A stretch of DNA of 8,704 nt, from IMG/VR virus record IMGVR_UViG_2713896905_000005, positions 1-8,704 of that record. One strand, 5' to 3'. A program made the translations under genes and the position numbers. Below, in pieces: positions 6,436 to 8,487 of the stretch (positions within the stretch are counted from its first letter, which is position 1; each line of letters opens with the position of its first letter). The stretch comes from a virus. Its lineage: Duplodnaviria; Heunggongvirae; Uroviricota; Caudoviricetes. Below the pieces are notes generated by a model. It worked only from the letters and a program-made list of their open reading frames with translations. It did not search any database and was not told the origin of the DNA.

Positions 6436-6531
6436 TCAAATAAGTGGTTTGCTGCCTAATTTCATTTTCTGGCGACCAACACAAGTCACACCCATTTCAC
6501 TGCGTGGCTTGCGGTAGTAAATTAGGTTTGT
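6436..6531 (-). pseudogene. Remnant of an N antiterminator 3' end (…IYYRKPRSEMGVTCVGRQKMKLGSKPLI*), without the 5' part
   Basis: Minus-strand frame between the tL1-like terminator and orf28 encodes a peptide very like the lambda N C-terminus as recalled (…GITCSGRQKIKGKSIPLI) and the intact N here (…IYYKDSNPLGNKIHAVQKIKLYSKLP). The frame is closed by TGA at 6532-6534, so no N-terminal part or start is present. Confidence 0.5.
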
Positions 6532-6536
6532 TCAGA

Positions 6537-6561
6537 CAATAAAAAACCCACCGAAGTGGGC
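6537..6561 (-). terminator. Rho-independent terminator (tL1-like), minus strand
   Basis: Hairpin CCCAC-CGAA-GTGGG (6547-6560) immediately after the ORF stop at 6561-6563, followed on the minus strand by UUUUUUAUUG (6546-6537). Confidence 0.65.
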
Positions 6562-6899
6562 TATGACCATTTTTTATTTGGATTTCGTTGGTGAGCGTGA
6601 TTAACAACTCTGTGCATTACATCCTCATATTTTTCATCTTCAATTTTTTCGACATCGCGAGGAAATGGTGTTGCTAATGCTTTGTCAACTTTGTCCATTG
6701 GGTCTTCATTAATCTTATATTCAGGGCCATCATCTATAGCATTAAATCCAGGTGTTACACCGTTTTTTAATGCATATGCTATCCTTTTTTCCCATCTCGC
6801 TATTCTCCTCCTGTCTCGAGATGTAAGACCTCTATCAGATACTTTTCTGTTTTGTCCGCGGTCAGGATTAACATAAATAGTCTTTTTCACCATAAGCAT
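6561..6899 (-). CDS. Hypothetical protein, about 112 aa, basic N-terminal half (RDRRRIARWEKR) and acidic C-terminal half, located between N and the tL1-like terminator
   Basis: Open frame begins 2 nt after the N stop. The track start is TTG at 6905; first ATG is at 6899 (MLMVKK…), second at 6893. No strong SD, so likely coupled to N translation. Stop abuts the terminator hairpin. Confidence 0.55.
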   Translation of the reverse strand: MLMVKKTIYVNPDRGQNRKVSDRGLTSRDRRRIARWEKRIAYALKNGVTPGFNAIDDGPEYKINEDPMDKVDKALATPFPRDVEKIEDEKYEDVMHRVVNHAHQRNPNKKWS

Positions 6900-6901
6900 A
6901 C

Positions 6902-7207
6902 TCAATAAGCACCGTACGGTAGTTTACTGTACAATTTTATTTTTTGGACTGCATGTATTTTGTTTCCTAATGGGTTTGAATCTTTGTAATAAATACTTCT
7001 ATTTTTTCGAACGACTTCTTCTTTCTTCTTGCAGCAAAGGCATCCTAGCGATGCTGCTTTGTCTGCTCTGACGCAACCAGAGAGCTTTAGCGCAATTTTT
7101 CGCGCCAGTGCTTCATTACTGCGTCGCTCGGCAATAAGTTCTGCTCTGCGAGCTTTGTAGCGGCTTTTTGCCGTACCTTTGGATTCTTTCCAGACAATGG
7201 TTACCAT
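6902..7207 (-). CDS. N: N-type transcription antiterminator, 101 aa, with a phage-21-type arginine-rich motif
   Basis: ATG at 7207 with AAGGAG about 8 nt upstream. N-terminus MVTIVWKESKGTAKSRYKARRAELIAERR contains the phi21 N ARM peptide as recalled. Located just downstream of nutL and PL. The track's 10-codon extension (ATG 7237) has no SD. Confidence 0.8.
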   Translation of the reverse strand: MVTIVWKESKGTAKSRYKARRAELIAERRSNEALARKIALKLSGCVRADKAASLGCLCCKKKEEVVRKNRSIYYKDSNPLGNKIHAVQKIKLYSKLPYGAY

Positions 7208-7317
7208 GATGGTCTCCTTTAAGTGGCTTTGGCGCATGACGCGTCGAGGTGCTTATCTTCTCGATCGCTGTCTTGCAGCTGCAATTCGCGCCATCCCCAA
7301 AACCACTCAAGTTCTGG

Positions 7318-7358
7318 TCTCAACGGTTAGGTTGAGAGTCCGTCGATGTTAAAGAGCC
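7318..7358 (-). promoter_or_regulatory. nutL: boxA (GGCTCTTTAACA) plus boxB hairpin (UCUCAAC-CUAACC-GUUGAGA)
   Basis: Minus strand reads GGCTCTTTAACA (7358-7347), a 9-nt spacer, then a perfect 7-bp stem with a 6-nt loop (7337-7318). Sits between the PL candidate and N. Confidence 0.6.
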
Positions 7359-7403
7359 TGCCAATCTGTTCCGTTTGGCTTCCAGCGTCCTGCTGATGGC
7401 TTA

Positions 7404-7457
7404 AATTTAAGACTTCTTAATTTATTGGTCAAGTGCATTTTTGAAGAAAACTTAATT
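7404..7457 (-). promoter_or_regulatory. PL promoter candidate with OL operators of P22 type
   Basis: Minus strand: -35 TTGACC (7432-7427), 17-bp spacer, -10 TAAATT (7409-7404). Two 18-bp sites fit the P22 operator pattern ANTNAAG-N4-CTTNANT: ATTTAAGACTTCTTAATT (7405-7422) and, with one mismatch, TTTGAAGAAAACTTAATT (7440-7457). Confidence 0.5.
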
Positions 7458-8445: not shown

Positions 8446-8487
8446 GCTCTTTAACAGTTCTGGCCTTTCACCTCTAACCGGGTGAGC
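8446..8487 (+). promoter_or_regulatory. nutR: boxA (TGCTCTTTAACA) plus boxB-like hairpin with a CUAACC loop
   Basis: GCTCTTTAACA (8447-8457) is identical to the nutL boxA core. Ten nt downstream a stem (8468-8474 with 8481-8487, including G-U pairs) encloses loop CUAACC (8475-8480), identical to the nutL boxB loop. Lies between cro and the cII-like gene. Confidence 0.55.

Follow-up and report, generated by a model that had tools for sequence, protein, structure and literature searches.

The window, i.e. the entire 8,704-nucleotide stretch of DNA analysed here, corresponds to the early-left region and the immunity region of a lambdoid prophage. A repressor gene is followed on the minus strand by pL, nutL, N, nun, a hairpin, an acidic ORF and ral, in that order. 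The features on which the analysis draws are listed below.

8172-7522, minus strand: P22-c2-like repressor gene
7404-7432, minus strand: pL (TTGACC, 17-bp spacer, TAAATT)
7318-7357, minus strand: nutL of phage-21 type, with boxA at 7347-7357 and, as folded, a boxB hairpin with a 6-nt loop at 7318-7337
6902-7207, minus strand: N-type gene, 101 codons, TGA stop at 6904-6902
6544-7019, minus strand: HK022-like module of 476 bp, comprising an alternative N 3' end, the nun promoter, nun and the terminator
6926-6954, minus strand: probable nun promoter, with −35 ATGCAG at 6954-6949 and −10 TACAGT at 6931-6926, inside the last codons of N
6561-6899, minus strand: nun ORF, 112 codons plus the stop codon
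6759-6836, minus strand: Arg-rich motif, the predicted boxB RNA-binding part of the product, ORF residues 22-47
6564-6623, minus strand: C-terminal arrest tail DVMHRVVNHAHQRNPNKKWS, ORF residues 93-112
6539-6562, minus strand: predicted intrinsic terminator directly after nun, CCCAC-UUCG-GUGGG and then a T run, forming a 7-bp G+C-rich hairpin
6436-6531, minus strand: orphan phage-21-type N 3' end just after the terminator, 32 codons including the stop
6157-6357, minus strand: ral, anti-restriction gene
8446-8485, plus strand: nutR of phage-21 type, with boxA at 8446-8456 and, as folded, a boxB with a six-base loop at 8468-8485

The pL region of the window is identical to that of phage 21. The N-type gene matches PHROG 271 (E = 8.7e-31), and ral, which shows a strong match to Ral (E = 1.6e-48), is the actual anti-restriction gene of the window, located about 200 bp further left of nun. 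A 28-codon acidic ORF (MEEEFEEFEEHPQDVMEQYQDYPYDYDY; window 6341-6427, minus strand) overlaps the start of ral and occupies the position of lambda orf28. An Rfam search, in which nut and put RNAs have no model, returned no families in the window or in six related loci.

The nun open reading frame

The ORF that follows N runs on the minus strand from the ATG at 6899-6897 to the TAG at 6563-6561 and is real and intact; a program-made ORF list had extended its start to a TTG at 6905. A reading made earlier from the sequence alone had placed a 112-aa ORF between the N stop codon and a terminator, and this holds, the hairpin at 6562-6539 being the terminator in question. The TGA of the N-type gene (6904-6902) precedes the ATG of nun by two bases. 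With respect to the start site, the 109-residue form of Nun used in the literature corresponds to initiation at V4 of the ORF (GTG 6890-6888), and the mass computed for it (12,732.16 Da) agrees with the value expected for Nun in the structure paper (12,732 Da), whereas the conserved Met of diverged homologues aligns with M3 (ATG 6893-6891). Inspection of the sequence upstream of the three candidate starts revealed no good Shine-Dalgarno at any of them, in agreement with the earlier remark that the ORF lacks a strong one of its own.

The same reading described a basic N-terminal half and an acidic C-terminal half. The former is evident, with 14 K+R and 5 D+E among residues 1-56; the latter applies only roughly, residues 57-112 containing 10 K+R and 13 D+E, with the last 18 residues basic again.

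Identification of the product as Nun

Only the searches of PHROGs and of PDB sequences identified the product of this ORF. It matched PHROG 5632, 'Nun-like transcription termination factor', over the full length of the profile (positions 1-112 of 112; E = 4.5e-71), and ORF residues 4-112 matched chain N of PDB 6ALG, the cryo-EM structure of Nun on an E. coli elongation complex (E = 2.5e-71). Scans against Pfam, NCBIfam and PADLOC gave no match at E <= 1, and the profiles of lambda-type N (Pfam PF25694 N_peptide; PHROG 271) did not match either. Compared directly with HK022 Nun, 111 of the 112 residues are identical, the sole difference being S14R, which lies outside both functional segments; R at position 14 is found also in mEp235, HK75 and PA28.

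Both functional segments are identical to those of HK022. The Arg-rich motif agrees at 26 of 26 positions with the peptide of PDB 1HJI, i.e. the Nun peptide solved with boxB RNA, and by this exact match it would be the RNA-binding part of the protein. In the tail, all residues that by cryo-EM touch RNA polymerase, RNA and DNA are present, namely, H93, R94, N97, H98, H100, R102, K106, K107 and W108 in the 109-residue numbering, of which N97, H98, H100, R102, K106, K107 and W108 are the inserting ones (PMC5386594, PMC4124055). The GenBank records of mEp235, mEpX1 and HK75 already label the same gene Nun. Judging by these sequence matches, the ORF is very probably (we would put it at about 0.9) the transcription-arrest and superinfection-exclusion gene nun of HK022, carried here by an mEp235-like prophage with phage-21-type immunity. 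The gene, the structure of the protein, its mechanism and the N-nun arrangement itself (the latter through the GenBank label in mEp235) are already known, and the description of the ORF as a gene of unknown function has to be given up, given that it encodes HK022 Nun with one substitution.

The relationship of Nun to N proteins is distant. An alignment of Nun residues 25-75 to residues 1-52 of lambda N has 29% identity (pairwise E = 7e-4); it is weak, spans the Arg-rich motif and the segment after it, and is confined to the N-terminal half. Like lambda N and phage 21 N, Nun binds boxB and depends on Nus factors (PMC5386594, PMC4124055), but it differs from them in having the arrest tail in place of the N C-terminus and in causing arrest rather than antitermination.

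Known activity of Nun and the proposed anti-defence role

Nun, the product of a prophage gene, excludes superinfecting lambda by arresting its transcription (PMC5386594, PMC4124055). Its Arg-rich motif binds the boxB hairpin of the nascent lambda nutL or nutR RNA in competition with lambda N, and its C-terminal segment enters the active-site cleft of the paused elongation complex, where the tail is in contact with beta, beta', the RNA/DNA hybrid and DNA; because the enzyme is thereby tied to the hybrid and the DNA, Nun-bound RNA polymerase can move neither forward nor back (PMC5386594, PMC4124055). In vivo, Nun requires NusA, NusB, NusE and NusG; the complexes that it arrests are removed by Mfd. 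The early genes of lambda and of lambda imm434, which have NUT sites in common, are not expressed in a nun lysogen. At high concentration or when overproduced, Nun acts nonspecifically and is toxic. Mutations in HK022 nun affect neither lytic growth nor lysogenisation, and no biological function of Nun besides lambda exclusion has been described (PMC5386594, PMC4124055). The unimpaired growth and lysogenisation of the mutants imply that Nun serves the resident prophage rather than the infecting phage.

These data bear on the function that the sequence-only reading had suggested, namely, an immediate-early anti-restriction or other anti-defence factor that is made with N to disarm the defences of the host. 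The position of the gene is compatible with such a role: nun is promoter-proximal in the pL operon, no intrinsic terminator is predicted between pL and the nun stop codon, and the region also carries an anti-restriction gene, ral. Expression from pL together with N, as proposed, is indeed plausible: with N ahead of nun and the first leftward terminator behind it, the gene would be part of the pL transcript. However, the product shares 99% identity with a protein for which transcription arrest on lambda templates is the only activity known, it shows no Pfam, NCBIfam or PADLOC similarity, and HK022 nun mutants are normal in both lytic and lysogenic growth (PMC5386594, PMC4124055); the documented role is, in fact, the reverse, i.e. 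exclusion by a prophage. An anti-defence function therefore appears extremely improbable. Nor is immediate-early timing what counts for the known function, because nun mutants lysogenise and grow normally and the gene has its own annotated promoter. Involvement in phage conflict is the element of the proposal that survives, Nun being an exclusion factor aimed at another phage and not at the host. Overall, then, the earlier interpretation is partly supported.

Exclusion genes are annotated near N in other phages as well. In lambda, sieB, annotated as a superinfection exclusion gene, lies in the DNA directly left of N and thus shares both the slot and the general purpose of nun, but the two proteins are unrelated and differ in mechanism (sieB is considered here on the basis of its annotation). 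PA28 and Hafnia phage Pocitis76 likewise have annotated exclusion genes near N.

An HK022-like module inside a phage-21-type N gene

The region around nun is a mosaic. Homology to HK022 extends over 476 bp (6544-7019; 96.8% identity, 0 gaps) and stops at both ends, and homology to phage 21 (96-97% identity) covers 6985-7450 and 6301-6532, two pieces that abut in phage 21. Thus, the HK022-like module sits inside a phage-21-type N gene, and it follows that N is chimeric, that the nun promoter lies within N coding sequence and that the 21-type N 3' end has been displaced. The suggestion that nun is a cargo gene on a segment delivered by recombination is well supported by this layout, with HK022 homology between two stretches of phage 21 homology. 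Approximately the first 62 codons of N, with the Arg-rich motif, are 21-type, and the remaining 39 or so are supplied by the module; annotations of the viable phages mEp235, mEpX1 and Kapi1 include the same N.

The displaced, orphan N 3' end (6436-6531) reads TNLIYYRKPRSEMGVTCVGRQKMKLGSKPLI up to its stop codon. Together with the downstream DNA, it is 97% identical to phage 21, and a related locus (L014) carries the window-type sequence. The orphan end and the N 3' end of the module (7019-6902) flank nun as a diverged direct repeat. Translation of the orphan end was considered and rejected: it has no start codon, there is an in-frame stop directly upstream, and it is located after the terminator. 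The module may have been inserted into a 21-type N gene or, alternatively, the N gene of phage 21 may have arisen by deletion of the module between the N 3' repeats.

In HK022, as in the window, nun lies on the left side of the immunity region as part of the pL operon and is preceded by the same 120 bp, with the annotated nun promoter, and directly followed by a terminator. In HK022 and HK75, however, nun comes after putL without an N gene, whereas in the window it comes after a complete N with a 21-type Arg-rich motif. The same 120 bp encode the N C-terminus in the window, where an orphan N 3' end lies downstream; in HK022 they are non-coding and so look like the remnant of an N gene in which putL has taken the place of the 5' part. 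The N-nun-terminator-orphan block of PDP110P1, mEp235, mEpX1 and Kapi1 is 98-99% identical to the window over about 1 kb, and that of PA28 and Stx1a-converting phages is 91% identical; none of these N-nun regions differs substantively from that of the window. The gene is labelled Nun in mEp235 and mEpX1 but 'hypothetical protein' in Kapi1 and PA28.

The position of the nun promoter was mapped from the 'nun gene promoter' features of MH547045 (O276, HK022 immunity). The promoter sequence is conserved in full, the hexamers being identical in HK022/O276 and the window; judged against the consensus, the promoter is weak, and a consensus promoter scan of the window did not detect it. Going by the GenBank annotation and the title of a paper, nun probably has its own promoter for expression from the repressed prophage, and we infer from the conserved sequence that this promoter is active in the present context.

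Downstream of nun, the hairpin at 6562-6539 is the only terminator-like site that a scan of the minus strand found from pL through to the end of the ORF. Its counterpart at this position in HK022 is CCCGC-UCAG-GCGGG, in which G-C replaces an A-U pair of the window stem in a compensatory manner, and hairpin-plus-T-run sequences unrelated to that of the window follow many diverged nun-like genes. The compensatory change in the stem and the hairpins behind diverged homologues support the predicted terminator beyond its shape. In the loci of the Stx1a/PA28 type (L063-L068), the terminator stem after the nun stop codon is degraded (CCCACTTCGGTAGATTTTATTG), and the annotated N of PA28 runs 32 bases into nun; hence, expression signals may differ in that lineage.

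nut sites and compatibility with the resident N

The nutL of the window is, base for base, the annotated boxA-L and nutL of phage 21. The nutR was typed by eye, not by alignment; boxA-R and nutR of phage 21 are annotated at the equivalent position. No lambda-type boxB was found in the window with up to 3 mismatches allowed, and among 95 nun-bearing loci, none has a lambda boxB and 62 have a 21-type nutL boxB. The N and Nun proteins of the window share no detectable similarity. From these comparisons, the resident N and the resident Nun would read different RNA hairpins, and the phage would not arrest itself because its nut sites are 21-type and lambda boxB is absent.

In the repressed prophage, low-level transcription of nun would start at its own weak promoter in the last N codons and stop at the hairpin right after nun; upon infection or induction, nun would also be part of a pL-N-nun transcript. 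By analogy with HK022, the Nun of this prophage would exclude lambda through boxB binding and elongation arrest, and the phage itself, with 21-type nut sites, would be spared.

Conservation and distribution in Escherichia coli

We found nun in 221 of 5426 complete E. coli genomes, always on the chromosome. In comparisons with five homologues, dN/dS ranged from 0.03 to 0.15. Considering these values and the presence in 221 genomes, nun is more than a chance ORF, and the sequence comparison indicates that it is subject to purifying selection. The match covers at least 80% of the gene in 219 of the 221 genomes. Occasional broken copies do exist, such as a frameshifted one (L071) and a scrambled version that represents a protein cluster (P0004), as would be expected if nun were a passenger without current function, inherited along with the recombinant N. 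However, strong purifying selection, the coverage of at least 80% of the gene in nearly all carriers and the conservation of the promoter and the terminator are hard to reconcile with this explanation, which we consider scarcely credible.

Of the 5426 genomes, 213 contain the entire N-nun-orphan block at a coverage of at least 80%, which amounts to approximately 96% of the 221 nun carriers. Accordingly, N-nun is the common arrangement and the N-less put-nun of HK022 and HK75 is the minority. Thus, in nature nun is mostly found behind a working N, in contrast to the N-less HK022 arrangement in which Nun was studied, and this raises a testable question, namely, what keeps N and Nun, which share Nus cofactors, from interfering with each other. 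A limited literature search found no paper discussing either the N-nun arrangement or the wider Nun-like family.

In most complete RefSeq E. coli genomes, nun and the chimeric N are annotated as 'hypothetical protein' (e.g. NZ_CP093068.1, 1908849-1909187), including nun copies in Stx-phage-bearing O26, O103, O111 and O145 strains. Because Pfam, NCBIfam and PADLOC have no model for Nun, approximately 4% of complete E. coli genomes carry nun as 'hypothetical protein'. A family model would mend these labels, including those in Stx1a prophages of pathogenic strains.

Diverged Nun-like proteins

Searching IMG/VR and one genome per species for diverged relatives, we identified Nun-like genes with 34-66% identity in phages and prophages of Escherichia, Shimwellia, Hafnia, Providencia, Proteus and Photorhabdus. 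The family is small, given that an exhaustive HMMER scan of 1.84 billion representative proteins yielded 13 clusters only. All members have a common tail, D-x-M-x-[RKH]-VVNHA-x-Q-R-x-x-x-K-K-W, with L in place of the second-to-last K in one member; N97, H98, K107 and W108 are invariant across the diverged homologues. The N-terminal Arg-rich motifs differ widely among these proteins.

In some cases, the origin of the motif is recognizable. A lambda-N-like N-terminus (MDAQARRREKRKEKQEEWK...) is joined to the Nun arrest tail in L076-L081 and in Hafnia phage Pocitis76 (L007, 2001-2267), and these genes adjoin an N gene with an unrelated Arg-rich motif; in L076-L080 and in the first of the two Nun-like genes of Pocitis76, residues 1-52 share 54% identity with lambda N 1-52 (E = 1e-17). 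The Nun-like motif encoded in L083, L084 and L095 (the last from Proteus vulgaris) shares 67% identity with the motif in the N of L085, which is a different phage. The motif of the resident N and that of the Nun-like protein are unrelated in 10 of 12 loci. L085 is the clear exception, its own Nun-like motif resembling the motif of the resident N (Smith-Waterman score 88), a likeness that the idea of targeting a rival leaves unexplained.

Nearly all diverged Nun-like genes sit directly after an N-type gene or a put site. Orphan 3' ends of several N types (RQKMRGKSIPLI or ...CLPNVAVFSGVKTKQPSSEFGVTAR, each running to a stop codon) follow Nun-like genes in at least five diverged lineages, being located just after the Nun-like stop codon in L072, L076-L080, L083-L086 and L089. 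The recurrence of these ends in the sequences of diverged lineages suggests a cassette bracketed by repeats.

We infer from these sequences that the family consists of N mimics that would have been retargeted by motif exchange on a module between N 3' repeats. In its full form, which we advance tentatively and regard as somewhat less than an even bet, this reading holds that nun is a portable exclusion cassette that lies between diverged N 3' repeats and is gained by, or lost from, heterologous N genes through homologous recombination, its arrest tail having been joined to the N-type Arg-rich motifs of other phages so as to target the nut types of rivals. If this is correct, Nun is one member of a small 'N-mimic' family, and the window copy is the common natural form, with HK022 as the atypical one. 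The swapped motifs in the diverged relatives further suggest that an arrest factor can be given a new target through exchange of its RNA-binding peptide of 25 residues, a possible tool.

The association with N could also be taken to mean that Nun has a further or a different main role in N-bearing phages, such as damping or timing the antitermination by their own N, or acting on transcription in the host, lambda exclusion then being a by-product. About 96% of the E. coli nun copies (213 of the 221 genomes) directly follow a functional-looking N, with the N stop codon 2 nt from the nun ATG in the window; moreover, Nun acts nonspecifically at high concentration (PMC5386594, PMC4124055), and the Nun-like Arg-rich motif of L085 resembles that of the resident N. 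This role is nonetheless unlikely, even if less so than the anti-defence and passenger explanations: the window N and Nun lack detectable similarity and the nut sites are 21-type, the N and Nun-like motifs are unrelated in 10 of the 12 loci, and lambda exclusion is the only function described for Nun (PMC5386594, PMC4124055).

Two further observations concern the arrangement of the diverged genes. Nun-like genes with 58-66% identity lie directly after sequence closely similar to HK022 putL in L072 (300-470) and L073 (1330-1510); therefore, the put-nun arrangement is old as well and extends beyond HK022 and HK75. Some phages have two tandem Nun-like genes after N, the second one being located at 2375-2680 in L007, 1695-2081 in L078 and 1863-2180 in L081; this second gene combines the same arrest tail with a different N-like Arg-rich motif (MATIIYGKSLPPKTSKGRRRLRR... 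in L007 and L081).
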